DNA of 64,000 nt from a virus (IMGVR_UViG_3300005805_000072:12953-76952); one strand, 5' to 3'; shown: positions 528 through 58,024, numbered from the stretch's first letter. Notes: generated by a model from the sequence alone, not told the origin. Made by a program: numbers and translations.

Positions 528-793
528 TGGCATTTCTTGGAACCATAGGAAAATCAAAAGTGGGTGGGGGGGTCGTATTCACTGGCTCTCCCAACTGCAC
601 TGCCGATGATCTAAATGTGGTCATAGTAGGTAGTCTTGTTTCGTCGCATGGAATTAATGAACACGGCAAATCAAAGATGGTGACTGGAACTCCAACGGTT
701 GAGTGCAATGACCTACCCGTATGTGGTGAGGGAAGCATTGCCACCTGTGGAGACATAATGTTGACTATCAGCAGCGTTGAGGTTGGTCTATGA
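527..793 (+). CDS. PAAR-repeat spike tip protein (gp5.4-like)
   Basis: 88 aa with SHG...HG, VTGTPTVECNDLPVCGEGSIATCGD (PAAR-like repeats with His/Cys metal ligands); position after gp5. Confidence 0.75.
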   Translation: MAFLGTIGKSKVGGGVVFTGSPNCTADDLNVVIVGSLVSSHGINEHGKSKMVTGTPTVECNDLPVCGEGSIATCGDIMLTISSVEVGL

Positions 794-1668
794 TTCTTTC
801 AAACTACCCATCCATATTCGATGCGTCGAACTGCACGCTTATCTCACAACTGCTTCCACCAGGTCCGAAGAAATTCCTCAACGATTTCATGACGGGAAAT
901 TTGTTCAGAAATCCCGTCCAACAGGTTACTGAAGCACTCAAGGATGAAATCGGGAAAGCCCTATCATCCTCCGATTCCATAGCCGACTCCGACTTGCTTG
1001 AAGGACTTACCGGTGCATTTGGAGATTTGTCCGAGGCACTCAACGGTGTGAACACTGAGTTGAGTGCATATCTAAGACACACAAACAGACTCAGTGGAGT
1101 TGATCTGAGTCCTGGTGGAATATTGCCAACCGTTGACCGTATCATTGGTGTTCAGCAGACCTACAACAGCATAAAGGATTTACTCAAGGATCCCGACGAG
1201 AGATTGCAGGACAACTTCTCAAATGCATTCTCATCAATCAATCCACAGATTGTTGGACCATTCTTTGAGAACTTTGGGCAGAATATGAATCAGATAAACT
1301 CTGTCCTTGGAGAAGTAGAGTATCAACTTTCCATTGGTGGAGCCACGGCAGCGGCAGAGTTCGTTGGAGATATAAGAGAGTTGACAACAAACATCATCTC
1401 TTTTGAGAGCAATATCAGGACTCTGATAGACGGAGACATAAATGCATACAATCTTGCCCTTGCTGCTGTCGAGAGATATGCCATAGGAAACAGCCTGTTG
1501 TCAACCGCACTTGTTGATCCCTGCTTTGGTGCAAGGTTGATAAAGGAACTAATCACATCGCCCGATGCAAGTAAAACACTTGATGGCATTATTCAGGAGA
1601 GCAGTGGAGTGACTGGTCCTACTGGTGTACCAATAGACCTGATCGACTATATTCCAAGCCTACGATGA
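790..1668 (+). CDS. Hypothetical alpha-helical protein, probably virion-associated
   Basis: 292-aa ORF coupled to the PAAR gene by an ATGA overlap; no recognised motif. Confidence 0.7.
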   Translation: MILSNYPSIFDASNCTLISQLLPPGPKKFLNDFMTGNLFRNPVQQVTEALKDEIGKALSSSDSIADSDLLEGLTGAFGDLSEALNGVNTELSAYLRHTNRLSGVDLSPGGILPTVDRIIGVQQTYNSIKDLLKDPDERLQDNFSNAFSSINPQIVGPFFENFGQNMNQINSVLGEVEYQLSIGGATAAAEFVGDIRELTTNIISFESNIRTLIDGDINAYNLALAAVERYAIGNSLLSTALVDPCFGARLIKELITSPDASKTLDGIIQESSGVTGPTGVPIDLIDYIPSLR

Positions 1669-1778
1669 TGACCGAATATTCTTCACATGACAAGTCATAC
1701 ATATTTGGATTGGTCTGGGAAGTTTGCACAAATGCCTCATCATGATGGTAATCCCACCAAAATACCCCGAGAATCCCG

Positions 1779-2177
1779 ATGAAGAGCATAGTAAGACGTA
1801 ACCTATTCAAAGACCTTGATCTCGACTTCATGCCGCATCCGGTAACGGGAGACATCACGCAAAAGGTGGATGCCGAGGCAGTGAAGAGAGCCGTCCGCAA
1901 TCTCGTCCTCATGAACAAGTATGACAAACCGTTTCAGCCTCAGATTGATTCCCGAGTCACACGGTTGCTCTTTGAACCAGCAACTCCATTGGTTGCGCTT
2001 GCCCTGAGATCAAACATAATGGACATTCTTACGAGGTACGAGCCAAGGGCAAAGATAAACGATGTGGTTGTGTTGTTTAATGAGGAATACAATGCATTCA
2101 ATGTATCGGTGTCGTTCATGGTGATAAATTCGCGTGATGTATCCACCGTAAATGTAGCAATAGAAAGGTTTGCCTGA
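1779..2177 (+). CDS. gp25: Baseplate wedge subunit gp25
   Basis: DLDLDFMPHPVTGDI...DAEAVKRAVRNLVLMNKYDKPFQP...YEPRAKI is the typical gp25 signature. Confidence 0.93.
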   Translation: MKSIVRRNLFKDLDLDFMPHPVTGDITQKVDAEAVKRAVRNLVLMNKYDKPFQPQIDSRVTRLLFEPATPLVALALRSNIMDILTRYEPRAKINDVVVLFNEEYNAFNVSVSFMVINSRDVSTVNVAIERFA

Positions 2178-4021
2178 TGCCGAATCGCGCGCTGCTTCCA
2201 ATCACCAGAATAGACTTTGAGGGTATAAAGACAAACCTCAAGAACTATCTTGCGAACACAACAGAGTTCTCCGATTACGACTACGAAGGAGCAGGAATCA
2301 ACATCCTGCTCGACCTTCTTGCATACAATACCCACTACACGGCAATGTATGCAAACATGCTTGCTGCGGAATCTTTCATGGATTCCGCCTTGCTGAGAAA
2401 GTCCGTTGTCTCACTTGCAAAGAACCTTGGATACATTCCATTTTCATCTACTTCGGCAAAGGCAGTGGTATCCCTTCAATTCGGAGTTACATCCGGAGTT
2501 CCCAACTTGCTTCCAAAGGGAGTGGTTTTCACCGCTACGAAGGATGATGTGCAGTATTCCTTCACAACCACTCAGACGCATGAGATAGACAAGTCTGAGG
2601 TTCCATACAAGTGCGAAAATATTGAAATCCATCAGGGTTCCTTCTCTACATCTTCGTTCATATACGATGAGCAGAGCAACTCTACGAAATTTGAGATCCC
2701 ATTTCAGAACATAGACATAAGCACATTGAGCATCTATGTCCTTCGATCACCAAACGATCTTTCAAATGCCGATATATCGTGGAGAAAGAATACCGACTTC
2801 CTGAGCATAGACTCGACTAGCAAGGTCTATTTCATCACTGAAAACTATAAGGGAAAATATGAAGTTTCCTTTGGAGATGGAATCTTTGGAGTTAAACCAG
2901 AGAAGGGAAGTTACATCGTGGCAGTCTATCTGAAGACAGATGGATTGCTTGGAAATAACATAGGAACAACCATCACTGGACAATCTCAGTTCACGTTCTC
3001 AGGAATAGACGGAAACAACTATGGTGCGACTGTAAGCACGATCACCGCTTCATATGGTGGAGACAATCAGGAGTCTGTTGAGAACATACGGAGGACTGCT
3101 CCCAAATACTACCAGAGTCAGGATAGAGCAGTCACTGTACAGGACTATGAAAGCATAATCCTACGGGAATTCGGCGGTGCAAAGCAAGTTCGTGTGTGGG
3201 GAGGAGACGAAAACGATCCACCCGAATATGGAAAGGTTTTCATCTCCGTTCTTCCAAAGGCATCTCTTTATCTCAGCGATGCACAAAAGCAAAGTCTGAC
3301 TCGCAACATACTCGACAAAAAGAAGATAGTGTCGGTCACATCGGAGATAGTTGATCCAGACTACACATATATTCTCGTTGAGTGTTTTGCCACCTATGAC
3401 TCTTCAAAATCCTTTACTAGCGAGGGTTCGATAAAGGATTCGTTGAACTTTGCCATACAGAAGTATTCGATAAGCAGCCTTCTTTCTTTTGGTTCCCCCT
3501 TTAGGTATTCCACACTGTCGAGAATTCTCGATTTGTCGAGCAACTCAATGGTCAGCAACCGCATATCGACAAAACTAGCAAAGAAGGTCATCATTCAATA
3601 CGGAAAGACGAACTACTCAATGGACTTTGGGGCAAGGTTGTATCATCCAAATGACGGTGCTGCCCCCATAGTTTCAACATCGTTGTTCAAGCATCGCGAC
3701 AACTTCAACAACATACGCGACTGCATACTTGAGGACGATGGTTATGGAAACATTGCCCTATATGCCTTGTTTGGCAGATCCAAGGAAGTTCGTTTGCTCA
3801 TAAACGGAAAGATCGGAAAGATAAACTATGAAACAGGAAAGGTAAATCTTGTGGGATTTGCTCCAACTGGCAGCGGTTCTCTTCCATATATTCAGTTTAC
3901 CGTCATCCCCGATCAGAGATATGACATCATTCCCAAGAGAAATCAGGTTCTTGCTATCGATTCAAGTCTTCAGAATGCGATAATCATCACGATGGATGAT
4001 GCAGCCATCAGGAAAATCTAA
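2177..4021 (+). CDS. gp6: Baseplate wedge subunit gp6
   Basis: DFEGIKTNLKNYL...FSDYDYEGAGINILLDLLAYNTHY; ESVENIRRTAPKYYQSQDRAVTVQDY; GKVFIS. Confidence 0.95.
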   Translation: MPNRALLPITRIDFEGIKTNLKNYLANTTEFSDYDYEGAGINILLDLLAYNTHYTAMYANMLAAESFMDSALLRKSVVSLAKNLGYIPFSSTSAKAVVSLQFGVTSGVPNLLPKGVVFTATKDDVQYSFTTTQTHEIDKSEVPYKCENIEIHQGSFSTSSFIYDEQSNSTKFEIPFQNIDISTLSIYVLRSPNDLSNADISWRKNTDFLSIDSTSKVYFITENYKGKYEVSFGDGIFGVKPEKGSYIVAVYLKTDGLLGNNIGTTITGQSQFTFSGIDGNNYGATVSTITASYGGDNQESVENIRRTAPKYYQSQDRAVTVQDYESIILREFGGAKQVRVWGGDENDPPEYGKVFISVLPKASLYLSDAQKQSLTRNILDKKKIVSVTSEIVDPDYTYILVECFATYDSSKSFTSEGSIKDSLNFAIQKYSISSLLSFGSPFRYSTLSRILDLSSNSMVSNRISTKLAKKVIIQYGKTNYSMDFGARLYHPNDGAAPIVSTSLFKHRDNFNNIRDCILEDDGYGNIALYALFGRSKEVRLLINGKIGKINYETGKVNLVGFAPTGSGSLPYIQFTVIPDQRYDIIPKRNQVLAIDSSLQNAIIITMDDAAIRKI

Positions 4022-6033
4022 TGCCAGTAAGCCTTCCGCTTCTATTCTCAGGAGGATCAGGTGCAGCCGAGGTTCCGACCCTTGCGCTGTCTGAGGAATC
4101 TCCACGAATAATCAAGAGGTTTGGTCCCAGCAATCTCATTGTGGATCAGGTTCCTGATTTCATAAACAGAGATCATGAGACATTCAGGAAATTCATTGAG
4201 GCATACTATGAATGGCTAGAGCAGATCCAGAACCCGTTTGGAGTGATAGATTCCTTCTCAGAAAACATGGACATAGATCAAACTATTGGATTGTTCTTAG
4301 TTGATTTCCGTGAGATGTATCTGAAGGATTTTCCATACCAACTGGCAGTTGATGTCGATGGAAATGTGGTCAGTGAGGCTAATTTCCTCAAGAATGCAAG
4401 GAGTTTCTATGGTGCTAAGGGAACTGAAAAGGCTTTTCGGTTTCTCTTTCGCCTGATATACAATGTCACCTCCGAAGTAGCCTATCCCGGCAAGAACATA
4501 CTCAAATGCTCACATGGAAAATGGATAGAGCGAAAGTCGATAAAGACCACAAGTGCTGGTGGAACTGGAAACTATGCTATTGAGGGAAGTCAAGTATATC
4601 AGATTGATCCCGTCAATGGAAATGTCACAGCATCGGCAGTAGCATCTCATGTGATACAGTACGACAGGAACTACTACACAGTCACCGAGATATTCATCCG
4701 TGACCTAGTAGGAGAGTTTGATCGAAATCTTCCGCTGAAGTGCGATCTTTCCACCGGCACCATCAGCGAGACAATATACCCAGTCATAACAAGCATAGAA
4801 GTCATTGATGGGGGGTCGCTGTATCAGAAACACGATGATGTTGGCATAACAACAGCAGACGAAGGGCTTGGTGCATCTGCGGTCATCAATGGTGTAAATC
4901 GTGATGGCAAAGTCCTTGAGATAGGCATACTTGATTCTGGTGTTGGGTATACCAAGAATGCACAGGCAAGCATAACATCCAATACTGGGGATGGTTTGGT
5001 TGTCCTTAAGCCGGTCATAGGGGCAGTGACAAACTATGCGGGATTCTATGAGAATAACGATGGAAAGTTGAGTTCAAACAAGAAACTGTTTGATGCCGAC
5101 TATTATCAGGATTTTTCGTATGTGCTAAGAAGTGAGATTCATCTTGACGAGTATAAGGAACTATACAAGAAACTTGTGCATCCGGCTGGTTTCAAGATGT
5201 TCGGTGAAGTCCTGCTCAGTAGGAAACTCGTAGAATCTCTGCCATTTCATTCGGAGATGCAGAGGTATGAAAATGCATACATTGGACACTATACTCCGTA
5301 TCGCATGGGAACGACTGCCGACTTGTATACAGTCTATCCAGCAGGATTCAACCCGCGCGGCGATACCTACAGCACATACCAAAACTATGGGCAAACGGGA
5401 GGAAAGTTGTTTGTCAAGCCTGTTGGCTTTACCTTCTTGGCATCATCAACATGGCTGACTATAGGTGCAACTGGCGTGTGTGGGGATGGCATAACTGCCA
5501 GCGTGTTTGAGTTCAGATCTCTCAACAGCGGCGGAACCTATGGTGTTCTTCTTCTCAAGACCATAGACTTCAATACGGCTAGTGCAGGAGTAACGGGTGC
5601 AGGGTTCCTTGAAGGAGCAACATTCAGAATGTACTCGGACTCCGGTGTATACAATGCTGTGATCGACCGTGTTCGCTTTGGAACAGGCATTGTTCCTGAG
5701 ACAGGCGGATATACCCATGATGCACAGGGCAAGCCACTTGGCAAAACCCTCAGCGTCGAGGGATACATAGAAGCACAGGGATTTAGTTATGACTACTGGC
5801 GAGTCCACCACCACCCAAACATATGGGGTATCCGTGGCTTGACAGGCGTTTGGAACACTGGAACGGGAGCAGGGGCATCGTTTGGAGCGATGGCACTGAA
5901 TCCTTTCTTCCGCCTCCCTGTAGGATACCATTTCCACTCCGATCCATATGGAACATCATATGTCGGAACAACGGGAGATGGCAACGAGTATGGTCTAATC
6001 GAAAGCAATCAACTAACCTCACCGAACTTCTAA
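4021..6033 (+). CDS. gp7: Baseplate wedge initiator (gp7-like, cyanophage type)
   Basis: PDFINRDHETFRKFIEAYYEWLE; FYGAKGTEKAFRFLFRLIYN; DYYQDFSYVLRS...KKLVHPAGFKMFGE; lies between gp6 and gp8. Confidence 0.8.
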   Translation: MPVSLPLLFSGGSGAAEVPTLALSEESPRIIKRFGPSNLIVDQVPDFINRDHETFRKFIEAYYEWLEQIQNPFGVIDSFSENMDIDQTIGLFLVDFREMYLKDFPYQLAVDVDGNVVSEANFLKNARSFYGAKGTEKAFRFLFRLIYNVTSEVAYPGKNILKCSHGKWIERKSIKTTSAGGTGNYAIEGSQVYQIDPVNGNVTASAVASHVIQYDRNYYTVTEIFIRDLVGEFDRNLPLKCDLSTGTISETIYPVITSIEVIDGGSLYQKHDDVGITTADEGLGASAVINGVNRDGKVLEIGILDSGVGYTKNAQASITSNTGDGLVVLKPVIGAVTNYAGFYENNDGKLSSNKKLFDADYYQDFSYVLRSEIHLDEYKELYKKLVHPAGFKMFGEVLLSRKLVESLPFHSEMQRYENAYIGHYTPYRMGTTADLYTVYPAGFNPRGDTYSTYQNYGQTGGKLFVKPVGFTFLASSTWLTIGATGVCGDGITASVFEFRSLNSGGTYGVLLLKTIDFNTASAGVTGAGFLEGATFRMYSDSGVYNAVIDRVRFGTGIVPETGGYTHDAQGKPLGKTLSVEGYIEAQGFSYDYWRVHHHPNIWGIRGLTGVWNTGTGAGASFGAMALNPFFRLPVGYHFHSDPYGTSYVGTTGDGNEYGLIESNQLTSPNF

Positions 6034-6034
6034 A

Positions 6035-8359
6035 ATGGCAAACACCGCTCTAAAGTCCATATTCAAGACAGACCTGATCGAATTGATCAAGGATGTTTTA
6101 ACCGAAAGCAACCGCTACTATCTGTTTGTAAGCAGAGCAGAGCCATATGAGAACGATCCCAATACAACGGCAGTGGAGAGTGACACGAATCCTCCATCCA
6201 TACAGGAATCCTCGCGTCATGTCTATGACACGATGAGGCAGAGCATCTTCCTTAAGAGGATACAGAGAGACAACATCAAGTTGATTGTGCCGAGGATTGA
6301 TTGGACATATGGAACAGTGTACACGGCATATTCCGAAACCACCGACATGGGTGGCAAGGACTACTATGTGTTCACAACCGAGAACAACATCTACAAGTGC
6401 ATGGGTGCGAACGGGGCATCGACGGTCATGCCAACAGGCAAATCGACCAGTGTGATAAAACTATCAGATGGATATAGTTGGAAGTACATCTACAGTGTCC
6501 CCGAGGACTATCTGGGACATCTGACTCTCGACTACATTCCAGTCTTTCTTGCTGGTGAGGAATATCCTGATCAGAAAGAAGTACAGAATGCTGCAAAACC
6601 AGCATCGATAGACTATGTCTCCATGAATTCGAGCCTAAGCCCGACATTCTCAAAGATATACAAGAGCGAAAGATTCTTCACAAAGAACAACACGATAGAT
6701 GATCTTGGTCTGACATCAAACGCAGCAGGAAGCACGATAGTCACATTCAATTTTGCTGGTGAGGTGGATGATCCTGTCAATGGATATTGGAACAACTATG
6801 CCATTCATGTAACATCGGGACCAGGAATCGGTCAATACATGAGGATTGTTGATTTCAAGAAGGGCGGTAATGCTGGTGGGAGTTACTACTATGCCGAGGT
6901 ATATCCCGCCCTTGACAGGAAAGTTACTGCTCTTTCGGAGGTATCAGATCCATCGAATGCATCGAAGATGAAGATCGTTCCCTATGTCGTAATAGATGGG
7001 GATGGTGAAAATGGATCGATCATTCCGATCACATCGTTCTCCAAGAGGATAGTGAACGCGGTGGTTGCAAATTCTGGCAGAAACTACACTGCCGCAAAGC
7101 CAAGAGTGGTCAGTGACTCTGGAAGTGCAAGCATAGGGTCTCAGATAACAACATTCAATAATGCATTCACGGTCAGTCTATCCACCCCTCTTGGTCACGG
7201 CTACAGTGCCATAAAGGAATTCAATCCTGCAAGCCTGATGATAGTCACGGAACTGGATGGAACCGAAGATGGCAAGATGTCGGTTAGAAATGATTACAGG
7301 CAGTTTGGGTTGATAAAAAACCCATACTTGTATGGTGGTATGACTCTTGCTGGAGACGATCAGGAGTTTTCTCTGATGGCTAAGGTCATCAAGCAGCCAT
7401 CAAAGGGTGTGACCTACACTTTCTCCACATTTGCCACAGACAACTACATCATGGGCAAGGAAACAAGGGCAACTGCAAGAATCGTTGGAAGCGAAAAACT
7501 TCCTGGCTCAAGGTTCTATCGTTTGTTCCTTTCTGATGTTGTCGGAGACTTCAGATTCTCGGATGATGCATCAAGCAAGTCCCGTGTTTACTTTGGAAGC
7601 ACATTCACTGCTCCATTTGGAACAGGAGATGTTGCAAGACAGTATCAAAATCAGGTTGGTGCAACTCTTTCTGCATACGGAACAATATCGTCATACGATC
7701 TTTATGACAAGAGTTTGGTCATTGATACCACCTATGGTTCATTTACATCTGGCAAGGGCATTTATTTCGGAACCATTTCGGGATACACGCTCGAATCATC
7801 TCAAATAGTCAATATAGACGAAGAGTTTGGCGAACAACTCTTGCAGGTGTCATTTGGGGGAGTAAGTGGAAGCGAGTTCCTTACATTTGGCGAGGATGAG
7901 ATATTCGGACGAATGGCATCAACAGAACTCATACCAACGGTGACAAAAGATGCTGGTGAATATGACTTGACCACAAAAGTAACGATAGTGGCTGCAAGCC
8001 AGATGTCAGACGGAGTTCTTGCATCAAACTCAGCCGCAGATGGAACTATCTTGCAGACTGACAGCGATAGCCTTAGAAAAGTCACAGGAGACATCATCGA
8101 CTTCAAGGTTCCTGGTGGATTGGGATTTACCGGAACTCTCTACATGACAAACGTGAAGGGACAGTTCAACTCAACCGATCCCCTCAAGTTTACTCCATAT
8201 GGATCTACGGCAGAGAACTCGCTTGTTGTCACCATAGATTCAATCACCAATCCAGACATAAAGGTGGGATCTGGACAAGTGTTATACATAGAAAATGTAC
8301 GACCTATACAGAGAAATATCGAGCAATCCGAAGAGTTCAAGATTGTGATCGGTTTCTAG
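6035..8359 (+). CDS. gp8: Baseplate wedge subunit gp8
   Basis: IVPRIDWTYGTVYTAY; YYVFTTENNIYKC; DGYSWKYIY; NDYRQFGLIKNP; GSGQVLYIENVRPIQRNIEQSEEFKIVIGF. Confidence 0.9.
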   Translation: MANTALKSIFKTDLIELIKDVLTESNRYYLFVSRAEPYENDPNTTAVESDTNPPSIQESSRHVYDTMRQSIFLKRIQRDNIKLIVPRIDWTYGTVYTAYSETTDMGGKDYYVFTTENNIYKCMGANGASTVMPTGKSTSVIKLSDGYSWKYIYSVPEDYLGHLTLDYIPVFLAGEEYPDQKEVQNAAKPASIDYVSMNSSLSPTFSKIYKSERFFTKNNTIDDLGLTSNAAGSTIVTFNFAGEVDDPVNGYWNNYAIHVTSGPGIGQYMRIVDFKKGGNAGGSYYYAEVYPALDRKVTALSEVSDPSNASKMKIVPYVVIDGDGENGSIIPITSFSKRIVNAVVANSGRNYTAAKPRVVSDSGSASIGSQITTFNNAFTVSLSTPLGHGYSAIKEFNPASLMIVTELDGTEDGKMSVRNDYRQFGLIKNPYLYGGMTLAGDDQEFSLMAKVIKQPSKGVTYTFSTFATDNYIMGKETRATARIVGSEKLPGSRFYRLFLSDVVGDFRFSDDASSKSRVYFGSTFTAPFGTGDVARQYQNQVGATLSAYGTISSYDLYDKSLVIDTTYGSFTSGKGIYFGTISGYTLESSQIVNIDEEFGEQLLQVSFGGVSGSEFLTFGEDEIFGRMASTELIPTVTKDAGEYDLTTKVTIVAASQMSDGVLASNSAADGTILQTDSDSLRKVTGDIIDFKVPGGLGFTGTLYMTNVKGQFNSTDPLKFTPYGSTAENSLVVTIDSITNPDIKVGSGQVLYIENVRPIQRNIEQSEEFKIVIGF

Positions 8360-8371: not shown

Positions 8372-11300
8372 ATGCCTTCTTACGATCCGAACCTGTTCAA
8401 TGTAAATCCATACTACGACGACTTCAATGAGGACAAGAAGTTCCTCCGCATGTTGTTCCGTCCCGGCTATTCTGTGCAATCTCGCGAACTTACGCAGTTG
8501 CAGACGATCTTGCAGAATCAAATAGAGCGTTTTGGAAACAACATCTTCAAGGATGGAAGTGTAATCATCGGTGGTCAGATCACCACACAGACCTTGAATT
8601 TTGTCAGATTGCTTCCACAGACCATCGCAACTGCCAATTCCCCGAAGGTCGAGAGTCTTTCCGCAGGAGACTTGATCGGATACAACATCATTCAGAGGAA
8701 CGCAACCGGTGATTCGCTGGCGAAGGCTAAGATTGTCAATGTGCTTCCTTCATATAGCGATTCAGATGACTATGTCATTGCTGTGATCAGTTATATGTCT
8801 GGCAATCAGTTCTCTGCTGGTGTCACAGCCGAGTGCGACAATCCCGATAAATTCTTCGTTGTTCAGACTGCTCCTAGCAGCACGACTGTTCCGCATAGGG
8901 GAAGTTGCAAAACCGTGGCAGTTGCCGAAGGCGTCTACTATGTGGATGGCTTTTTCGTCAAGACGGACAATCAACTTCAGGCAGCATATACGATAAGCAA
9001 CGAAGTACGACAGTTCAATCAGCCAACGGGGTCGATGGGTTTTGCCGTCAAATCCATAATAGTCTCCGAGAAGGAAGATTACACTCTTAAGGATCCTGCC
9101 AGTGGTAGTTACAACTACAATGCTCCTGGTTCCCACAGATTCAAGATAGAACTTGAACTGACTTTCTCTGAACTTGCCGAGCAACAGGATTTTGTTGAAC
9201 TTGTTCGTTATGCCGCAGGAGAGGTCATAAAGAAGTTCGATCAGACCCAATATCCCGAACTAGTAAAGTTGTTCGCACAGAGGACATATGACGAGAGAGG
9301 CAACTACATCGTCAAGCCTTTCTCAATTTCCATGCGAGAGAAAGATGACACTACGCTGATTGCTGAATTGGGGTCGGGCAAGGCATATGTCTTTGGACAT
9401 GAATATGAATCTGTGTTTAGGGATCAAATAGAAGTACCCAAGGCAAGATCTACTGCTGAGTATCAGGACATAGCCATACAGAATAGTTTCGAGAACTATG
9501 TCGTTGGCAAGTATAGAACTCAGGTTAACAACAATGGCACAGGTCCATACAACACCAGAATACTCCCTCTTCTGAATGGAAATGATGGAACAGAGCCAAT
9601 CCTTGTATACGGCATAAAGTCAAATGTTCCTCTTGCGAACTATCGTTCAACTGGATTCTCTGGTGCGATTTTCTCCGCTCGTCTTCATCGAATGGAATTT
9701 GCAAATTCATCCATCAACGACACTGCGTATGGTGGTGCTGCCAGCAGTGGAGTGACAGGAACCGATATGAAGGCTTATCTGTCTGATATACAGGTGTATC
9801 AGTCGGGCATAACTGGAACCGCAAATCAATTCGTAAACCTATTTGCAATAGATCAAGTAACAGGCTTGTCCACAAGAGTTCTGTTCGATCTTGTTACTTT
9901 GCGTGATGTCGATCCTTCAAGTGATTTGATTCTTCCCAAGTTCAACAATTTTGCAAATCAGCAGTTGATCTTCCCCTTGAATGGAAACACGCCAACCACA
10001 CAGATAAAGGATGTGGAGCGTGTGTCTTATGTCTACACGGTCTACAGGCAGTTCTTTGCTGATGCAAGCAATGATTTCAAGCCATCGGTTGCAATCGACC
10101 TTCCTTCTGATTTCAAGTGGTGTACGGGAGAAGGATTCACTCCGGGAAGTCAGGGATTGGATGCAGAACTAACGATAGACGAGCAGGATGAATACTATCT
10201 TGTCTTCAATGCTACTGCTACTGGAGCCACCAATCAAACTTCGGGTGGAATATTTCCGGGAATGATTTGGAGAATACGGGGTGGGACTCCAATTGACAGG
10301 GTCGTTTCTGGATTCTCTTTCTCATATCCAACCGCAAAGATCACAGATAATGGTGCATACATCAAGTTCACCAAAGCACTTGCTCCAGGTTCATATACGA
10401 TCATTGGCAAGGCAAAGGCAAACAATCAATACATCGATCAGGATCCGACCAATAAGATCAGAACAAAGACACTGACCTCGAAAACAGAGACTGTCACTAG
10501 TTCGATGAGTACCATTGACACCTACAAGAGGAAGATTCAGTATTCAACCGATGCTTCCAACAGCATTGTTTCCCTGTACTTCAATTTGGACAATGCAGAT
10601 GTGTTTTCAATAAACAGTATAACTGGCATAACAGGGCAGGACATACTGTATAAGTTTCAGTTTGATTCTGGTCAGAGAGACTCTGCATACCTTCTTGGTA
10701 GACTCTATGTTAAGCCAAAGTACATCAACGAATTCAAGACTAATGAGACTTTCACATTCACGGTGAACTATTCTTGCTTCTCTCATGAAGGTTATGGTCC
10801 GTTTGTGAAGGAGTCCTACAACGGTATAACGTATGACAATATTCCTGTGTTTGTGAGTCCTACATCTGGAAAATCCATCAATCTTTCGAATGCAATCGAC
10901 TTTAGACCCGTCGAGACCATTAGTGGCTTCCGCAACAATGGTTCAAGTGGTGCGGCAAGCAATATACCGATCATCGACTATGTCGGTGGATTCATTCCAA
11001 GCAACTACAGCATATCTACCGACTACATTGCATACTTGCCAAGAATAGACAAGTTGGTTATCTCGCGGAACATTGCTGCTGATGGCGATACAAGCACACT
11101 TCGCAGAATTCCTGGAATCGCAAGCGATAGCCCACAGATTCCAGAGGATCTGAATGAGTCCATGACTTTGTCGATTTTGAGCATACCAGCATACACGTTT
11201 AATCCAGATGATGTAAAGTCTGATTCAATCGGAAACAACAGGTTCACCATGAAGGACATTGCCAGAATGTCCAAGAGAGTTGATGAACTTGAGCAACATG

Positions 11301-14119: not shown

Positions 14120-14310
14120 TGAAGTATACCCGAGACAAATCCTCTGGCGCACTGATCATTCACAATCCCGAGAAGGAGAAGGAAATACTCTTTCGCAGGG
14201 GAGTGGATAAAGAACTAAAGGCTTTGAGGGAAGAGATAAATACATTGAAGAAGCAAGTACAGGAACTATTAGCAGAGAGAAACTCAGATGCCGACAGGTC
14301 CAGCCAATAG
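14116..14310 (+). CDS. Small coiled-coil protein following the DUF4815-like gene
   Basis: YTRDKSSGALII then heptad LKALREEINTLKKQVQELL; ATGA coupling. Confidence 0.65.
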   Translation: MMKYTRDKSSGALIIHNPEKEKEILFRRGVDKELKALREEINTLKKQVQELLAERNSDADRSSQ

Positions 14311-25547: not shown

Positions 25548-26203
25548 TGTTTGACTACTTCTACAACGGAAGCATACGGAAACTTGTCGTTGGATTCGGC
25601 TCCCTGTTCAATGAGATATACATCTCAAGAAACCTACCCGAAGGGATCGTCAAGAAGATAAAGGTTCCAATCTCATACGGTCCAAAGGAAAAGTTCTACA
25701 GGAAGATAGTGGAACTTGATGAGGGTGGAGACAGGAATGCCGTGGAGAACATCCTTCCCCGCATAGGCTTTGAGATAACATCGATGACCTATGATGGAAG
25801 CAGAAAGTTGAACAGCCTCAATCGTTCATATACAAACAGAAACGAAGCAAATCAAACCATGTCGTATTCATACAATGAGGTTCCATACAACTTTGAGTTT
25901 AACCTGCATGTCATGGCTAGAAACATTGAGGATGGATATCAGATAGTGGAGCAGATACTTCCTTATTTCACACCCGATTTCACGATAACGATGAACTTCA
26001 CTGAAATCGACAAAAAGGTTGATGTTCCAATCATTTTGAATTCGGTTGTTCCAACCGACGAGTTTGAGGGAGACATGATGACGCGAAGGTTGCTCACTCA
26101 TACTTTCTCGTTCACCGCAAAGTCATACATCTTCAGCAAGATAACTACATCGGGTCTAATCCGTGAGATCAAACTCACCTTTCAGGAATTGGTGGATGAC
26201 TGA
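25547..26203 (+). CDS. gp15: Tail sheath stabiliser/terminator gp15
   Basis: YFYNGSIRKLVVGFGSLFN; KVPISYGPKEKF; LPRIGFE; QIVEQILPYFTP. Confidence 0.93.
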   Translation: MFDYFYNGSIRKLVVGFGSLFNEIYISRNLPEGIVKKIKVPISYGPKEKFYRKIVELDEGGDRNAVENILPRIGFEITSMTYDGSRKLNSLNRSYTNRNEANQTMSYSYNEVPYNFEFNLHVMARNIEDGYQIVEQILPYFTPDFTITMNFTEIDKKVDVPIILNSVVPTDEFEGDMMTRRLLTHTFSFTAKSYIFSKITTSGLIREIKLTFQELVDD

Positions 26204-32716: not shown

Positions 32717-32725
32717 GGAGATACA

Positions 32726-48515: not shown

Positions 48516-48962
48516 ATGGCAGCACTGAACATCGACTTTACCATTGAGCAGGGTTCGACCTTTGTACTTGAGTTTCAAGTCTTTGATGACCTTCTACAGC
48601 CTCTTGGAATGCTTGAGTCCTATGTTGATGACTTCGGCACTCTTCTCTATGACTTCACCAACTACAAAGCAAGGATGAAGATAAAGAAGACAAAGTACAG
48701 GACTCCCGAGTTGTATGTTTGCGGAACTACTATGAACTACATCGTTCAACCAGGTTCCACCGCAGGATTTGTTTCTGATGGAATATACTTCGTCGGTGGT
48801 TCAACTGGTTCGATGCGGGTTGTGATTACGTCGGATTCTACTGCTTCATTCAAGGGAGGCAGGTATTTCTATGACCTTGAACTTGTTGAAGATGATGGTG
48901 GAGAGATAGTGTCCAAACTATTGTCGGGAAAATTTGAAGTCGAGGCAGAGGCAACCAGATGA
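48516..48962 (+). CDS. Beta-sandwich structural protein, paralogue 2
   Basis: DFTIEQGSTFVLEF...ARMKIKKT...ITSDSTASFKGGRYFYDLEL...LLSGKFEVEAEATR; colinear with the previous ORF. Confidence 0.7.
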   Translation: MAALNIDFTIEQGSTFVLEFQVFDDLLQPLGMLESYVDDFGTLLYDFTNYKARMKIKKTKYRTPELYVCGTTMNYIVQPGSTAGFVSDGIYFVGGSTGSMRVVITSDSTASFKGGRYFYDLELVEDDGGEIVSKLLSGKFEVEAEATR

Positions 48963-51328
48963 AGATACGAAACATAAGAGTATTGAACAACTACAAGGTA
49001 AAGTTGACCAATGCAAAACTGTCTGATGTAGACGCAACGCGCAGCATAGTTGCAGAGCAGGGAACCAGATCTCCAACCATTCCGACGAATAATGTCACAG
49101 AGGCTCCTGTTACCTTTCAGCAGAAATTTGACATAGTGTTCAAGTATCTCATGAATAGATACGAGCCTGGTTGGTCGGGAGCGGATTTAACTGCTGGTAG
49201 AACCGCAACAATGCAGTTGTTGGGAGTTTCTGCTGGAATTAATCCATTGATTCTTGGTGGTACTGTCGAGACATCATTCAACTATACGACAAATGGGGAT
49301 GATGGTTGGTTTGACCCTTTGACTTATCCAAGAAACTTTGCAACTGCTGTGAGAACAGCATACAAGAGACTTGAACGAGCAAGGAACCCTCAAAGAGCAT
49401 CAAGCAAGTTTGTGGAGTACAATCTCAACAGTATTGTTTCTCAAGACTTTTTGTTTCAGGGTGGTAATGCGTTCTTTGGATTTCATCCAAACTTTGAGTG
49501 GTATCCAGCAACTTCTTTACCATATCAGTTGTACATGGGATACGAAGACAACTACAAGAATGGAGTTCAACGGTGTGTGTTGCACAGCCCTTATGGGAAC
49601 TTCACTAGCCCGATGAATGTCCTTGCTGGAAACTGGAGAAGATTGCCTTGGCTGTCGGACAGATATACCGCAGAGTCTTTTCAGTTTGATATGTACTTGT
49701 TGTCACAGGAAAAGACAACTATCAGGGATTTGCTCACCGATTCAACCATCACGCGAAATCCCAATCTTGGCATCTTGGTGGATGGTGTAACCGACACATA
49801 TCTGAATACTTCCTATGCTGGAGTGTGTTTCGAAGCAGGAACGCTTTCCAAGATTCCTTTTGATGACTACGGCAGAACTGGTGGTGGTTATGGGGAAAAT
49901 GAGGCTGTTGTTGGTTCTCCTTGGATAAGATTCCCCGAAGGAATCACCTATCCGGGTTGGTGGGGACCAGGAAGAGCAGGGTTGTGCTTTGCTTATGGTG
50001 ATCTTGTTCTCTATGATGGTCAGACTTTTCCAAATCAACCTCAGTCATTTGCATCATTGGCAAAACCTCCGATGTCTAATTCTATTGGTCTTTGCTTTGC
50101 CTATGGGGAAGCACTGCTCAACTCATTGAATGCTCTTTCAACAGCATGGGGAAATTCAATGGAATTCATAGCATATCTTGGTTGCATTCCATATGGAACG
50201 GGAACCGAGATGCGAATACCATTCGCTCTTTACAAAGATCCTCTTGTTCCCGAAAATGAAAGGTACTTCAAGTGGAGACTTGATGCCTCTGTATCTCACT
50301 GGAAGGAAAAGTTCAAATCGCCGTTCGATGGCTTTGCTCATGTTTTCATGGATGCCAGTTCTATCATAGAAAGAACTTATCATAAATGGCAACCATCGGG
50401 GTATACGTTCTGGACTAACATCACCAATGCTGGTACGAGTTATGTCGAGAACATTCCCGTGAAATGGGCTAGAGATCAATACAACTACACCTATGGAAAC
50501 TCTGGACCCAATCCGAACCGTGGCGTTGTCTATGGCATTGAGACATTTGCTCAATACATGTTCAAGGACGATGTTAGTTACTTCAATCCAAACAGGAATG
50601 ATCAGCGTAGATTCAATGGAGACACAGAACCAAGACACTGGGCTTTGGACTCAGACATTGCCTGTGCCTTGTTCTCCACTTCCCATGACATTCTTCTAGG
50701 TCAACGAAAATGGGGACTGACATATTCAAACTCCGTTTGGGGAATGGGGGTTTGTGGTAATACTTCACTTGGCGAAATCTTCACGAACTGCTCGCCCGAG
50801 GCACTAACAGATACAAACAAGTCTGCAATGAGCGGATTCCCTTGCTTCTATAACACATTTATCGAAGTGAAGGATAACGGAGATATTAAGTGGAAGGGTA
50901 TTCCGAACACCACGTTTGAGCAACCAAGTACAGGAAGAATACCTTGGGTTAATGATCGCAGATTCAGATTGTTCTATCTGTATCCAACAATGCTTGCCTT
51001 GAATGCCACAGTGATGGATCATTTCCATGATGGCTATGGATATTACAACTACTTCAATCGTTCTGGTTGGTTTGATATTCGACTTGGCAATTTTCTTGCA
51101 AGTCAAATGGAGACGCGACAACTTGGCAACATAGTTGCAAATCTTCCATTCCCAAACAGAAGAACTCCAACCACCCCACCACAAAACTTCTGGAACGGAA
51201 ATGCAAGGACATCTGAGTTTGAACTTCTCTATGCCTGTATGAAGGGTGGAATCACTGGTGGATTGGATTCTTTGCACTTCTCTGAACTGTATGTCGATCT
51301 TGAAGCAGCGGGTGCAACTGGATTCTGA
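48959..51328 (+). CDS. Hypothetical 789-aa aromatic-rich protein
   Basis: Long ORF coupled (ATGA) to the previous gene; no recognised family. Confidence 0.75.
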   Translation: MKIRNIRVLNNYKVKLTNAKLSDVDATRSIVAEQGTRSPTIPTNNVTEAPVTFQQKFDIVFKYLMNRYEPGWSGADLTAGRTATMQLLGVSAGINPLILGGTVETSFNYTTNGDDGWFDPLTYPRNFATAVRTAYKRLERARNPQRASSKFVEYNLNSIVSQDFLFQGGNAFFGFHPNFEWYPATSLPYQLYMGYEDNYKNGVQRCVLHSPYGNFTSPMNVLAGNWRRLPWLSDRYTAESFQFDMYLLSQEKTTIRDLLTDSTITRNPNLGILVDGVTDTYLNTSYAGVCFEAGTLSKIPFDDYGRTGGGYGENEAVVGSPWIRFPEGITYPGWWGPGRAGLCFAYGDLVLYDGQTFPNQPQSFASLAKPPMSNSIGLCFAYGEALLNSLNALSTAWGNSMEFIAYLGCIPYGTGTEMRIPFALYKDPLVPENERYFKWRLDASVSHWKEKFKSPFDGFAHVFMDASSIIERTYHKWQPSGYTFWTNITNAGTSYVENIPVKWARDQYNYTYGNSGPNPNRGVVYGIETFAQYMFKDDVSYFNPNRNDQRRFNGDTEPRHWALDSDIACALFSTSHDILLGQRKWGLTYSNSVWGMGVCGNTSLGEIFTNCSPEALTDTNKSAMSGFPCFYNTFIEVKDNGDIKWKGIPNTTFEQPSTGRIPWVNDRRFRLFYLYPTMLALNATVMDHFHDGYGYYNYFNRSGWFDIRLGNFLASQMETRQLGNIVANLPFPNRRTPTTPPQNFWNGNARTSEFELLYACMKGGITGGLDSLHFSELYVDLEAAGATGF

Positions 51329-51365: not shown

Positions 51366-51371
51366 TGAGCC

Positions 51372-51890: not shown

Positions 51891-51908
51891 ATAGTGTTGG
51901 AGTGATCG

Positions 51909-54928: not shown

Positions 54929-54938
54929 GGAGTGAACA

Positions 54939-55886: not shown

Positions 55887-56284
55887 ACGACAACCCATTC
55901 GATTTCCTAAACAGCATCAATCAGACCAAGGTGAACCTGATCCGAGATGAGGGTAGGGGAGCATCCGAGTATGCTCCCTACCTGATGAACAAGGGCTTGT
56001 CTCAGTTTCCCGATACGATCATGCAAGCAAATGTCATGAATCAGAGGGGGTTCCTTGACAAGCAGATGCAGTATGAATATCTGCTTCACTCTATTCGCCC
56101 AAGGAAAAGATTCTCCAAGTGGGCAAAGAAGGAAGATGCAGAGTTGATACAGGGCATATGCGACCTGTTTGGCTGCTCTGATAAGAAGGCAGAGGAGATT
56201 CGGGACATCCTAGGTCAGAAGTTGATCGGTAAACTCATCAAGGATCGTGAGAAGGCAGTCGGAGGTATCCAAAATGCTAAATAA
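55883..56284 (+). CDS. gp62: Clamp loader small subunit
   Basis: PFDFLNSINQTK; YAPYLMNKGLSQFPDT; QYEYLLHSIRPRKRFSKW. Confidence 0.92.
   Translation: MNDNPFDFLNSINQTKVNLIRDEGRGASEYAPYLMNKGLSQFPDTIMQANVMNQRGFLDKQMQYEYLLHSIRPRKRFSKWAKKEDAELIQGICDLFGCSDKKAEEIRDILGQKLIGKLIKDREKAVGGIQNAK
56277..56283 (+). promoter_or_regulatory. Late-type promoter upstream of regA and the GT2 cassette
   Basis: CTAAATA overlapping the gp62 stop. Confidence 0.45.
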
Positions 56285-56325
56285 TCCAGAATGTTCTATC
56301 ATGCTGATTGATTGGCGAGGATACT

Positions 56326-56742
56326 ATGGAAAAGAGAATATTGGATCTCAAGGTCGAAGACCTTTTGGAGATCACACTAAAGACAGAGGACGACTTCCTC
56401 AAGGTACGCGAAACCCTGACTAGGATCGGGGTATCCTCCAAGAAGGAAAACAAGTTGTACCAAAGTTGTCATATACTCCACAAAAGAGGTAAGTTCTACA
56501 TCGTGCATTTCAAGGAACTGTTCGCATTGGACGGGCTTCCAACTGATATCGATGATACAGACATTGGACGAAGGAACACTATTGCCAATCTTCTTGAAGA
56601 GTGGGGTCTAGTCGATATCGTTGATCCAAAGAAAGCAAGTGAACCGATAGTGTCTCTTGCACAGATGAAAATAATCCCATTCAAAGACAAGCAGAACTGG
56701 GAACTTGTACCTAAATACCATATAGGTAAGAAGAAGCCCTGA
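56326..56742 (+). CDS. regA: Translational repressor RegA (start at ATG 56326)
   Basis: DDFLKVRETLTRIGV; LYQSCHILHKRGKFYIVHFKELFALDG; RRNTIANLLEEWGL. Confidence 0.96.
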   Translation: MEKRILDLKVEDLLEITLKTEDDFLKVRETLTRIGVSSKKENKLYQSCHILHKRGKFYIVHFKELFALDGLPTDIDDTDIGRRNTIANLLEEWGLVDIVDPKKASEPIVSLAQMKIIPFKDKQNWELVPKYHIGKKKP

Positions 56743-56761
56743 CCCAAAAGGAATATACATT

Positions 56762-58024
56762 ATGCGTCCAACTGTTACACTATGCATGATCGTGAAGAAC
56801 GAGTCTCATATCATTCACGAATGTCTGAACTCAGTCTACAAGTACATCGATTACTGGGTCATCTGCGACACAGGTTCCACTGACAATACCAAACAGATCA
56901 TCACCGACTTCTTCAAGGAAAAGGGCATTCCTGGTGAGATCCATGACCATGAGTGGAAGAACTTTGGTCACAATCGCACACTTGCATTCAAGGCAGCAGA
57001 GGGCAAGGCAGACTATGCCTGGGTGATCGATGCAGACGATTACCTTGAGGGTGAACTCATCCTCCCACCCAATACGAATGTTGACAGTTATGCCCTGCGG
57101 ATCAAGCGTGGATCATTCTTCTGGTGGCGCAATCAGGTGTTCAAGTTGGATTGCAACTGGGAATACAAGGGTGTTCTACACGAATATGCCGCTTGTCAGA
57201 AGCAAAATCCCATCATCAGCAAACTTGAGGGCAACTACAACATCTGCGCCCGTACAATGGGTGGTGCAAGAAATGTAGGCATTACTCCTACGGAGAAGTA
57301 CAGTCGAGATGCTGTGATTCTTGAGGAGGCAATGAAGGAAGATCCAACCAATACCCGCCATCAGTTCTATCTTGCTCAGTCCTACTTCGATTCTCAGCAG
57401 TGGGAGAAGTCAGCGGAGGCATATCAGAAGCGAGTAGAGATGGGTGGATGGGAAGAAGAGGTCTTCTACTCCCTGTACCGCATCGCAATGATTGCGGCAA
57501 TCACCAACAAGCAGTTTGGCGAGATCAAGGAGAAGTTCCTCATGGCATGGAACTATCGTCCCATACGAGCCGAACCGCTGTATCATATTGCCAAGATGTA
57601 CCGCCTCATCAATCAGCCTCGCCTTTCATATCTCTATGCAAAGATGGCAAAGACCATGCCATATCCCCACTTTGACATCTTGTTCATCGATGATGATATC
57701 TACAAGTGGCAGATCGATGATGAGATCGCTGCCACTGCTTTCTACCTTCATCGCTATGATGAGGGGCTTGCAGCAGGAAGATCATTGCTTTTGAATCCCC
57801 TTTATCCAGAATCTGAACGACCAAGGATGGAGATGAATCTCAAGTTGTATGAGCAACGAATGGTTGAATCGGCGGGTATGATCGCTGCCATGAAAGCAAA
57901 GGAAGCACAACCTATACCGACAAATGCAGTTGTTTCAAACAACAAGGTTGAAGAGGAACAGCGCAGGGAAAACCTCAAGCGGCTTCTCAATCGCAAGAAG
58001 GATCGCAAGTCCAAGAGCCGTTGA
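56762..58024 (+). CDS. Family 2 glycosyltransferase with TPR repeats
   Basis: LCMIVKNE...CDTGSTDNT...NFGHNRT...VIDADD (DXD); LHE; TPR motifs HQFYLAQSYFD, VFYSLYRIA, RAEPLYHIAK. Confidence 0.9.
   Translation: MRPTVTLCMIVKNESHIIHECLNSVYKYIDYWVICDTGSTDNTKQIITDFFKEKGIPGEIHDHEWKNFGHNRTLAFKAAEGKADYAWVIDADDYLEGELILPPNTNVDSYALRIKRGSFFWWRNQVFKLDCNWEYKGVLHEYAACQKQNPIISKLEGNYNICARTMGGARNVGITPTEKYSRDAVILEEAMKEDPTNTRHQFYLAQSYFDSQQWEKSAEAYQKRVEMGGWEEEVFYSLYRIAMIAAITNKQFGEIKEKFLMAWNYRPIRAEPLYHIAKMYRLINQPRLSYLYAKMAKTMPYPHFDILFIDDDIYKWQIDDEIAATAFYLHRYDEGLAAGRSLLLNPLYPESERPRMEMNLKLYEQRMVESAGMIAAMKAKEAQPIPTNAVVSNNKVEEEQRRENLKRLLNRKKDRKSKSR

Follow-up and report, generated by a model that had tools for sequence, protein, structure and literature searches.

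Organization of the virion genes and the glycosyltransferase locus

The window that we analysed, a 64,000-nucleotide stretch of DNA from an uncultured T4-like phage, encodes a large set of virion proteins and, at 56762-58024 (+), a 420-aa GT2 (GT-A) glycosyltransferase with a C-terminal TPR-like helical domain. The gene lies in the replication module, between regA (56308-56742, identified by phrog_242) and dUTPase, next to three DNA methyltransferases and the DNA polymerase and with a clamp loader gene among its neighbours. A CTAAATA element, a candidate T4-type late promoter -10 box, is found at 56711-56717 (+), 51 nt upstream of the glycosyltransferase start, and a second CTAAATA is found at 56277-56283 (+), upstream of regA. 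The sequence-only reading that prompted this work had noted the element upstream of regA, but not the closer one. Eight of 11 plus-strand TAAATA copies lie within about 60 nt upstream of gene starts (fibre, tube and others), and the TAAATA late-type element that lies 45-51 nt upstream of the glycosyltransferase gene is placed as it is before the tube and fibre genes.

That reading had counted G-[AVILFYMT]-T tripeptides by hand in exposed structural proteins and had proposed that G-x-T is a Thr O-glycosylation sequon for this enzyme, which coats the particle with sugar. The observation held: its counts are exact, with 12 in the LamG protein, six in sheath 1, nine in sheath 2, four in gp23, and none in tube, portal, scaffold, terminase, gp46 and gp47. 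The interpretation is partly supported, as described below.

G-x-T is over-represented in virion proteins

To determine if the G-x-T count exceeds what composition alone would give, which had been named in advance as a test of the idea, we compared observed counts with those in shuffled proteins. In the 17 large virion proteins of the window, G-x-T with any x is rank 1 of all 400 gapped (a-x-b) residue pairs, with 167 observed against 90.2 expected (z 8.6). It remains rank 1 when shuffling is confined to 40-residue or 20-residue local stretches (z 8.7 and 7.9), and the excess holds under a dipeptide-preserving shuffle (167 against 94.9, z 7.9). In the remaining proteins of the window, there is no excess (24 against 26.8). 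Codon usage at the motif matches the background and GGNNNNAC is enriched only in codon phase 0; thus, the effect is at the protein level. Nor is it due to paralogy, since apart from the two sheath paralogues and one short fibre stretch, the enriched proteins share no detectable similarity. Isolated sites read G-[I/A/V]-T-[G/F/A], with charged residues depleted nearby.

The strongest carrier is a baseplate wedge or virion structural protein of the PF23786 family at 4021-6033 (+), with PHROG baseplate and virion structural hits, in which we find 16 G-x-T against 5.5 expected, and 11 against 2.6 (z 5.3) when x is restricted to the hydrophobic subset; 120 homologues of this protein have a pooled ratio of about 2. 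The 657-aa LamG (concanavalin-like) protein in the fibre region at 21663-23636 (+), which matches Pfam Laminin_G_3, has 17 against 7.8 (12 against 3.7 for hydrophobic x, z 4.6), and an 803-aa orphan virion-module protein at 26203-28614 (+), with no Pfam or PHROG family, has 16 against 5.8 (10 against 3.1, z 4.2). The tail fibre protein at 14288-16867 (+; phrog_4492) has 16 against 9.9, the tail fibre or collar-domain protein at 16878-18740 (+; Pfam Collar) has 13 against 7.7 (10 against 3.7, z 3.5), and the 1915-aa giant baseplate or structural protein at 8372-14119 (+; phrog_358) has 16 against 10.7 (12 against 5.0, z 3.2). A 789-aa orphan protein at 48959-51328 (+), also without a family, has 12 against 5.5, the baseplate wedge protein at 6035-8359 (+; phrog_438) has 9 against 6.1, and a 292-aa protein at the start of the baseplate module, at 790-1668 (+), has 4 against 1.4 (3 against 0.6 for hydrophobic x). 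The 617-aa fibre-region protein at 18750-20603 (+) has only 7 against 5.2 here, but its orthologue in G001, the closest relative of the window, has 13 against 5.4.

The sites are placed on outward-facing parts of these proteins where we could examine this. In tail sheath paralogue 1 (30800-32716, +), all 8 G-x-T sites fall at residues 100-333, the domain I/II-equivalent outer insert (3.4 expected), and none fall in the core (1.4 expected); in tail sheath paralogue 2 (32726-35557, +), which has a large outer insert, all 11 fall at residues 107-621 of that insert (6.5 expected) and none in the core (1.1 expected). In the major capsid protein gp23 (40120-41589, +), which has 8 against 3.8, an alignment shows that most sites lie in two clade-variable Gly/Thr-rich loops, although with hydrophobic x gp23 alone is not significant (4 against 1.9). 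Exposure of the sites on structural models had also been proposed as a check; solvent exposure was not computed, and the model of the 4021-6033 protein has a pLDDT of only 59.6, but in that model 12 of 16 motif Thr are in coil.

The excess is found in genomes that carry the enzyme

If G-x-T sites are substrates of the glycosyltransferase, relatives that lack the enzyme would be expected to lack the enrichment, a prediction that had been set out beforehand. We therefore compared six genomes that carry the enzyme (the window and five larger genomes, G001-G005) with six complete or near-complete T4-like genomes in which its absence was checked (Mosig, Melnitz, DLP_6, S-RIM2 and two IMG/VR genomes), and with the T4 structural set. 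In all six carriers, G-x-T is rank 1, at 1.49-1.69x in proteins of 400 aa or more, while the six genomes without the enzyme and the T4 set show 0.91-1.11x. The signal is specific to spacing, orientation and Thr: pooled over the clade, GxT is 1.60x, but TxG, GT, GxxT, GxS, AxT and NxT at gaps 0-5 are 0.8-1.3x, and GxT in the genomes without the enzyme is 1.02x. Isolated, non-tandem sites alone are at 1.37-1.63x, with z of 5-8 in every carrier. The isolated extended motif G[IVA]T[GAF] is at 3.0-6.4x in carriers and 0.87-1.83x in the others, but as the motif was derived from the carrier clade, that half of the comparison is circular.

The association between enzyme and motif has limits. The main weakness is that the six carriers form one clade with 0.99 support, so that co-occurrence of enzyme, sugar genes and motif counts as a single evolutionary event, and no clade member without the enzyme was found to break that confound. 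Three unrelated phages with homologues of 33-38% identity show no proteome-wide excess; isolated sites in Tunturi_5 are at 1.00x, and the megaphage signals come from a few repetitive proteins. Some single proteins of genomes without the enzyme reach about 2x, including the Melnitz gp7-like protein and the gp23 proteins of G006 and G007; thus gp23 alone does not separate the two groups. Conservation of sites between orthologues is only modestly above that of control pairs, and is also raised in the Mosig-Melnitz pair, which lacks the enzyme. Enrichment of a short motif on outer domains, together with co-occurrence with the transferase, is what would be expected of a sequon such as N-x-S/T, or D-S/T-A/I/L/V/M/T in Bacteroidota, but since the co-occurrence is one phylogenetic event that independent lineages do not reproduce, these observations leave undecided whether G-x-T is such a sequon. 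Every computational check that the sequence-only reading had named came out in the direction it predicted, although solvent exposure itself was not computed.

The enzyme resembles peptide and protein glycosyltransferases

The GT2 plus TPR annotation made from sequence alone is confirmed. The protein matches the GT2 profile Pfam PF00535 at 54 bits (cut-off 23.3 bits) over residues 7-99, with weak TPR matches, and both D36-T-G-S-x-D41 and I89-D90-A-D92-D93, which include the nucleotide-binding residues and the DxD motif, are invariant in 30 homologues of 51-88% identity. An AF2 model (pLDDT 88.6) has helices from 176 to 418, and a Foldseek search with this model gave SunS and ThuS (PDB 7MSN, 7MSK) as full-length top hits, over 391-397 columns at E values of 7e-17 to 4e-16 and TM of 0.57-0.58, followed by teichoic-acid glycosyltransferases at about 1e-8. 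In a sequence search of the PDB, the best match was GmaR, the flagellin O-GlcNAc transferase and MogR anti-repressor of Listeria monocytogenes (PDB 22AO; PMC9638930), at 1.7e-14 over residues 1-98, with ThuS/SunS at 1e-5.

SunS, which is encoded by the B. subtilis SPbeta prophage, and ThuS have the same architecture, a GT-A domain with DxD followed by a TPR-like helical domain, and glycosylate a residue in a Gly-rich flexible loop of a ribosomal polypeptide in the cytoplasm. However, identity to them is only 16-20%, and although the SunS family TIGR04195 is the best NCBIfam model, the score of 43.9 bits, with only residues 3-95 aligned, is far below the 350-bit equivalog cut-off. Moreover, no glycocin precursor peptide, thiol-disulfide oxidoreductase or export genes lie nearby, and the proposed acceptor is Thr on many large virion proteins rather than Cys or Ser on one bacteriocin. 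GmaR, a bacterial gene product, is likewise a GT2 plus TPR protein, and O-glycosylates Ser/Thr on the exposed surface of a self-assembling structural protein, flagellin, in the cytoplasm; no sequon is known to us for it. The solved chain covers 204 residues only, and only the N-terminal domain was compared; the phage has no flagellin, and MogR binding was not assayed.

G001-G005 each hold sugar-pathway and further glycosyltransferase genes within about 10-20 kb of the enzyme, which could not be seen from the window. These include GT10 fucosyltransferase-like, GT25, GT2 and GT1-like enzymes, GDP-mannose 4,6-dehydratase, epimerases and a sugar C-methyltransferase. The six genomes without the enzyme hold none, apart from one weak SDR-type hit in Mosig. 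Thus the relatives encode glycosyltransferases together with nucleotide-sugar enzymes, as expected for a virus-encoded glycosylation system, but only the GT2-TPR enzyme is present in the window itself; its contig ends before the place where G001 has the sugar genes, and the island is not shown for this phage.

A candidate virion O-glycosylation system

We consider it somewhat more likely than not that these genes constitute a phage-encoded virion O-glycosylation system, in which the GT2-TPR enzyme is a cytoplasmic protein glycosyltransferase of the SunS/ThuS/GmaR architecture and the initiating enzyme. In this view, the GT-A domain would transfer a sugar from a nucleotide sugar and the TPR-like domain would hold the acceptor polypeptide, with a preference for Thr in an uncharged, Gly-flanked context, G-[I/A/V]-T-[G/F/A]. 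Selection would have multiplied this context on solvent-facing loops and outer domains of baseplate, fibre, sheath and capsid proteins, and in relatives the neighbouring glycosyltransferases and nucleotide-sugar enzymes would extend and diversify the glycan. Our analysis demonstrates the motif excess and its specificity, its restriction to virion proteins, to outer sheath domains and to genomes with the enzyme, the fold relatives and intact DxD motif of the enzyme, and the sugar gene islands; that the enzyme acts on these Thr residues, which sugar is used, and any effect on adsorption, stability or recognition, which was not tested, are inferred. The location of the gene in the replication module, beside dUTPase and three DNA methyltransferases, counts against this reading. 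No glycan or modified Thr has been observed; virion proteins were not examined biochemically, and no isolate is known, as no phage record in the collection searched carries a close homologue. The particles of this clade are nonetheless probably sugar-coated at these sites.

Alternatively, the motif and the enzyme may be unrelated, with G-x-T a clade-specific habit of these virion proteins (a loop or turn-to-strand motif, a carbohydrate-binding surface, or a target of some other modification) and the glycosyltransferase and sugar islands acting on something else, such as the host envelope or a single dedicated substrate. Because motif and enzyme arose on one branch, any other trait of that branch fits equally well; in addition, the PF23786 family keeps its ratio of about 2 across the 120 homologues with several column-conserved G-x-T positions, the Melnitz homologue, from a genome without the enzyme, is at 1.97x, and distant homologues of the enzyme in other phages are not accompanied by a broad signal. 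Nevertheless, we consider this reading unlikely, although it is the foremost alternative, since the excess is spread over at least 12 proteins without detectable similarity, is absent from orthologous modules of six related genomes, is specific to Thr and to spacing, and avoids the sheath cores. Furthermore, about half the sites turn over between proteomes of 64% identity, which a fixed structural motif would not do, and the closest structural relatives of the enzyme all act on polypeptides. That the excess is a statistical or compositional artefact was tested and is not supported: virion proteins are rich in Gly and Thr and gp23 alone is not significant, but G-x-T is rank 1 under four different null models with z of at least 7.9, replicates in five further genomes and is absent in seven controls, such that we regard this possibility as remote.

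It is also possible, but less likely, that the substrate is narrow and that most isolated sites are unmodified, the enzyme acting only on collagen-like (G-x-T)n stretches or on one partner protein. Thr in the Y position of Gly-X-Y is the O-glycosylation site in the GXT repeats of Bacillus BclA and in Riftia cuticle collagen. Tandem (G-x-T)n runs are strongly over-represented in carriers, up to 11 triplets in G001 and 9 in G004, and also in Tunturi_5; a collagen-repeat fibre protein is among the nine clade-specific genes; a 136-152 aa ORF with 6 G-x-T directly follows the enzyme in G002-G005; and gp23 carries five consecutive Gly-X-Y triplets. However, most sites here are isolated, and the enrichment of isolated sites in every carrier would be left unexplained; the window has only five two-triplet runs and its subclade lacks the small downstream ORF. 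A role of the enzyme and the sugar islands in hypermodification of phage DNA, as in glycosylated hydroxymethyl-pyrimidines, rather than of proteins might be suggested by the location of the gene beside DNA methyltransferases and the DNA polymerase, and GT-A enzymes that glycosylate phage DNA are known and often neighbour epimerases and second glycosyltransferases (bioRxiv 10.1101/2023.12.21.572611). We consider this very unlikely: no thymidylate-synthase/dCMP-hydroxymethylase family member was found in G001-G005, in a search in which positive controls were detected, and no Tet_JBP match was found, although this is weak evidence because the control was silent. Moreover, the DNA-acting GT-A enzymes of that study match TarP, JGT and a PBCV-1 capsid glycosyltransferase best, while this enzyme matches SunS and ThuS best and carries a TPR-like domain that the study does not mention, and a role in DNA modification does not explain the G-x-T excess.

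Implications for phage biology

Virion glycosylation is documented for a few mycobacteriophages and for giant viruses, but not for T4-like phages, and no dispersed sequon is known for a phage. In mycobacteriophages of the Che8, Corndog and Myrna type, phage-encoded glycosyltransferases are thought to decorate capsid and tail proteins of the phage's own virion (a cluster F1 phage has two putative glycosyltransferases; PMC11256854). These are siphoviruses of actinobacteria with different glycosyltransferase families, in which the modification, shown experimentally (Freeman et al. 2023), sits on Ser/Thr-rich C-terminal extensions rather than on a short sequon dispersed over a dozen proteins; here, no modification is shown. 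Chloroviruses and mimiviruses encode nucleotide-sugar enzymes (GDP-mannose 4,6-dehydratase, epimerases) together with several glycosyltransferases and glycosylate their own capsid or fibres in the cytoplasm (PMC4691112), but these are eukaryotic viruses with N-linked atypical sequons or fibre glycans and unrelated enzymes.

At its fullest, which we judge about as likely as not, our interpretation is that a deep, environmentally widespread and so far uncultured clade of T4-like phages coats its baseplate, fibres, sheath and capsid with O-glycans attached at a simple sequon, G-[I/A/V]-T-[G/F/A], written by a SunS/GmaR-type GT2-TPR enzyme and extended by variable phage-encoded glycan islands. This would be the first sequon-directed, virion-wide protein glycosylation system in a tailed phage, and a case in which a glycosylation code was read from proteome statistics alone; ranking all gapped residue pairs against shuffles, genome by genome, is a cheap screen for other hidden modification codes. 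It would also supply a compact enzyme-plus-tag pair, a 420-aa glycosyltransferase and a 4-residue motif, for cytoplasmic O-glycosylation of recombinant proteins. More than 100 IMG/VR contigs encode the enzyme; thus, if the reading holds, a large group of environmental myoviruses carries a sugar coat, which could affect adsorption, protease and grazing resistance, aggregation, recognition by host defences or antibodies, and the behaviour of phage particles in water columns.

Structural context of the window

The window is the late and replication region of a T4-like myovirus on a 76,952-bp viral contig. It contains baseplate wedge genes, a giant structural protein, fibres, a LamG protein, neck proteins and terminase, two tandem sheath genes, tube, portal, protease, scaffold and gp23, followed by UvsW, gp46/47, clamp loader, regA, the GT2-TPR gene (a family 2 glycosyltransferase with a TPR-like domain), dUTPase, three DNA methyltransferases and the start of the DNA polymerase. 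The three methyltransferases (59185-61632) are tandem paralogues of phrog_67 and lie between dUTPase and the DNA polymerase. The nearest isolates are the pelagimyophage Mosig and the Methylophilales phage Melnitz, at about 55% gp23 identity, and no isolate in the phage collection searched has a close homologue of the glycosyltransferase.

G-x-T is over-represented in the virion proteins

The sequence-only reading had counted Gly-hydrophobic-Thr triplets by hand in the virion proteins, and we find that those counts are exact; its observation is confirmed and considerably strengthened. One condition it had set was that the excess should exceed what Gly and Thr composition alone would give. We ranked all 400 residue pairs separated by one position against shuffled sequences, which provides an unbiased and stronger test. 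G-x-T ranks first in the 17 large virion proteins, with 167 observed against 90 expected (z 8.6). It is still first when residues are shuffled only within 40- or 20-residue windows, and the count is still 167 against 94.9 (z 7.9) when dipeptide content is preserved. The other 41 ORFs of the window show 24 against 26.8.

We considered whether the excess might have an origin in DNA sequence or codon use, and rejected this idea: Gly and Thr codons inside the motif are used as elsewhere, and the DNA pattern is enriched only in codon phase 0, so this is selection on protein sequence. Similarly, paralogous repeats were rejected as the source, because the proteins concerned share no detectable similarity, apart from the two sheaths and one short fibre stretch.

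The signal is narrow. Pooled over the large proteins of the clade, GxT is 1.60x, but GT, TG, TxG, GxxT to GxxxxxT, GxS, AxT and NxT are all 0.8-1.3x. The middle residue favours I, A and V, position +3 favours G, F and A, and K, R, E and D are depleted on both sides. Some sites form collagen-like (G-x-T)n runs, which reach 11 triplets in G001 and 9 in G004 (two of the relatives encoding the enzyme, described below), but such runs were rejected as the whole signal in this clade, because isolated sites alone are 1.37-1.63x (z 5-8).

Location of the sites within virion proteins

In both sheath paralogues, all 19 sites lie between the Gp18_domIII_N and Phage_sheath_1 Pfam domains, a region that corresponds in T4 gp18 to the outward-facing domains I and II, and none lies in the conserved inner core, where 2.5 are expected. 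The two sheath genes (30800-35557) are complete and tandem, encode 638 and 943 aa and are followed by one tube gene; their cores are 41-46% identical and their outer inserts are unrelated. In gp23, most sites lie in two Gly/Thr-rich variable loops whose exact site positions differ between relatives. Tube, portal, scaffold, protease and terminase have none. Mapping of the sites on AlphaFold models had been put forward beforehand as a check on surface exposure, but the model of the strongest carrier (4021-6033) was too poor for this (pLDDT 59.6) and gave only the secondary-structure context, without solvent exposure. It places 12 of 16 motif Thr in coil.

The excess is found in the genomes that encode the enzyme

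If the motif is tied to the enzyme, related phages without the enzyme were expected to lack the enrichment, a comparison that the sequence-only reading had itself named as a test. To carry it out, we obtained whole genomes of five IMG/VR relatives that encode the enzyme (G001-G005), at 51-56% (G001-G005) enzyme identity to the copy of G003 and 76% (G001) or about 55% (G002-G005) to that of the window. We also obtained six T4-like genomes that do not encode it: Mosig, Melnitz, Stenotrophomonas DLP_6, S-RIM2 and two IMG/VR genomes, one of them complete; absence of the enzyme was verified. The T4 structural set was added as a further control. In every carrier, G-x-T is rank 1 of 400, at 1.49-1.69x in proteins of 400 aa or more and z 5-8.5, while in every genome without the enzyme it is 0.91-1.11x, at rank 40-311. 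In the complete genome G003, the excess sits in baseplate, fibre, sheath and other G/T-rich virion proteins. It is not in terminase, portal, the 851-aa ORF at 75254-77809 (not annotated here; possibly the DNA polymerase) or the RNR-like protein.

Core-gene trees place the six carriers in one clade (0.99 support), with all genomes lacking the enzyme outside it; the enzyme, the sugar genes and the motif may therefore have arisen once, and the association has an effective sample size of one. We searched for clade members without the enzyme through regA synteny and found none: every close relative with enough downstream DNA has the enzyme right after regA, and the two long regA-bearing contigs without it (G006 and G007) fall outside the clade and show no enrichment. 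Single proteins from genomes without the enzyme can reach 2x, and gp23 was rejected as a discriminator because several gp23 proteins from genomes without the enzyme reach about 2x. Similarly, conservation of sites between orthologue pairs is only modestly above control pairs and is also raised in the Mosig-Melnitz pair, which lacks the enzyme, and is thus not discriminating.

To determine if the association is reproduced in independent lineages, we examined three unrelated phages with 33-38% identical homologues of the enzyme, none of which shows a broad excess. The jumbo phage Tunturi_5 (PP885688.1; loci L163-L178 of our sequence set), with a 38%-identical homologue, has strongly over-represented tandem (G-x-T)n runs (65 sites against 5.5 expected, runs up to 11) but isolated sites at 1.00x, so that tandem runs explain its whole signal. 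The megaphages LR745206 and LR756501 (33-35% identity, 400 kb sampled from each) give 1.17x and 1.04x overall, and their 2.6x for the extended motif comes from 'DITGVTAGA' and 'GSSGITGSS' repeats in a few proteins. In LR756501.1, giant proteins of 2816, 2372 and 1664 aa (102894-124287, loci L290-L291) are built of 'GSSGITGSS'-type Gly-X-Y repeats, and GxS, TxG and SxT have z above 20 in this genome, which encodes a 35%-identical GT2-TPR homologue. These phages give no independent support and no refutation, since acceptor specificity may differ.

The enzyme resembles SunS and ThuS in its predicted structure

Pfam finds a GT2 domain plus weak TPR matches in the enzyme, and the best PDB sequence matches are GmaR, the Listeria flagellin O-GlcNAc transferase, then ThuS and SunS. 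An AlphaFold model built on 30 homologues (pLDDT 88.6) shows a GT-A domain followed by about 240 residues of paired helices. The top six Foldseek hits of this model are SunS and ThuS, of which the four full-length chains align over the whole length (E about 1e-16) and two are truncated SunS entries; they are far ahead of TarS, TarP and RmlT. The DxD and nucleotide-binding residues are invariant. However, the enzyme is not a SunS equivalog (43.9 bits against a 350-bit cut-off) and has no glycocin neighbours, and it therefore resembles this group in mechanism without belonging to a glycocin system; complexes of the enzyme with substrates were not modelled. In the close subclade, the glycosyltransferase ends in a conserved, strongly basic tail (57900-58021; consensus LLNRKKDRKxKSR) that more distant homologues lack.

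The position of TAAATA elements bears on the timing of expression. TAAATA is not over-represented overall, but 8 of its 11 plus-strand copies (14237, 35555, 37845, 41654, 43182, 47196, 56278 and 56712) lie within about 60 nt upstream of gene starts, including a fibre gene, the tube gene, regA and the glycosyltransferase itself (56711-56717). This fits a T4-type late -10 element and is probably that of this phage, although the assignment rests on position only.

Sugar-pathway genes accompany the enzyme in the larger genomes

Nine genes of G003 are present in at least three of the four other large enzyme-carrying genomes (G001, G002, G004 and G005) and in none of the six without it: the GT2-TPR, a GDP-mannose 4,6-dehydratase, an epimerase/dehydratase, a sugar C-methyltransferase, a collagen-repeat protein, an RNR-like protein, a dUTPase variant and two unknowns. 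The collagen-repeat protein (741 aa; L101:4317-6542, G003 84317-86542) carries Pfam Collagen triple-helix repeats and 18 G-x-T. The RNR-like protein (640 aa; L101:9343-11265, G003 89343-91265) is class II (B12-type) ribonucleotide-reductase-like and is 78-94% identical among the relatives that carry the enzyme.

In G003, the 12 kb immediately upstream of the GT2-TPR holds, in order, a GT47-like protein, a methyltransferase, GT25, a GT10 fucosyltransferase, the C-methyltransferase, two epimerases, a second GT2, a GT1-like protein and an SDR dehydratase, and a GDP-mannose 4,6-dehydratase lies 12 kb further on (L099:16061 to L100:9260, G003 56061-69260, and L101:1095-2135). G001, G002, G004 and G005 each have a comparable but not identical set within 10-20 kb of the enzyme. 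In G001, the closest relative of the window, the set lies where the contig of the window has already ended, and the island is therefore inferred, not shown, for this phage. Directly downstream of the GT2-TPR in G002-G005 is an ORF of 136-152 aa with no family (L100:9260-9718 in G003), of which the G003 copy has 6 G-x-T in 152 aa. It could be a dedicated substrate or partner, but the subclade of the window lacks it and has dUTPase there instead.

Interpretation

The analysis itself shows the excess of the motif, its narrowness, its placement in the sheath and gp23 and its co-occurrence with the enzyme; that the enzyme modifies these Thr residues is an inference. Among the alternatives, it remains possible, though rather unlikely, that G-x-T is a structural motif unrelated to the enzyme. 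A narrower substrate, either the collagen-like G-x-T repeats or the small G-x-T-rich ORF downstream of the enzyme in G002-G005, also remains possible but is more doubtful. A role in modifying DNA with sugars is unlikely: no ThyA/dCMP-hydroxymethylase homologue exists in G001-G005, in a search with working controls, no Tet_JBP match was found (although the control for this search was silent), and known DNA-acting GT-A enzymes have other structural relatives.

The proposal of the sequence-only reading, that G-x-T is a Thr O-glycosylation sequon for the GT2-TPR, is thus partly supported: it is the best-supported explanation, and we consider it somewhat more likely than not, but it is unproven. 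Literature searches found no report of a G-x-T sequon or of glycosylated T4-like virions. Relative to known phage and giant-virus virion glycosylation, what would be new is a short dispersed Thr sequon read by a SunS/GmaR-type enzyme in a T4-like lineage.
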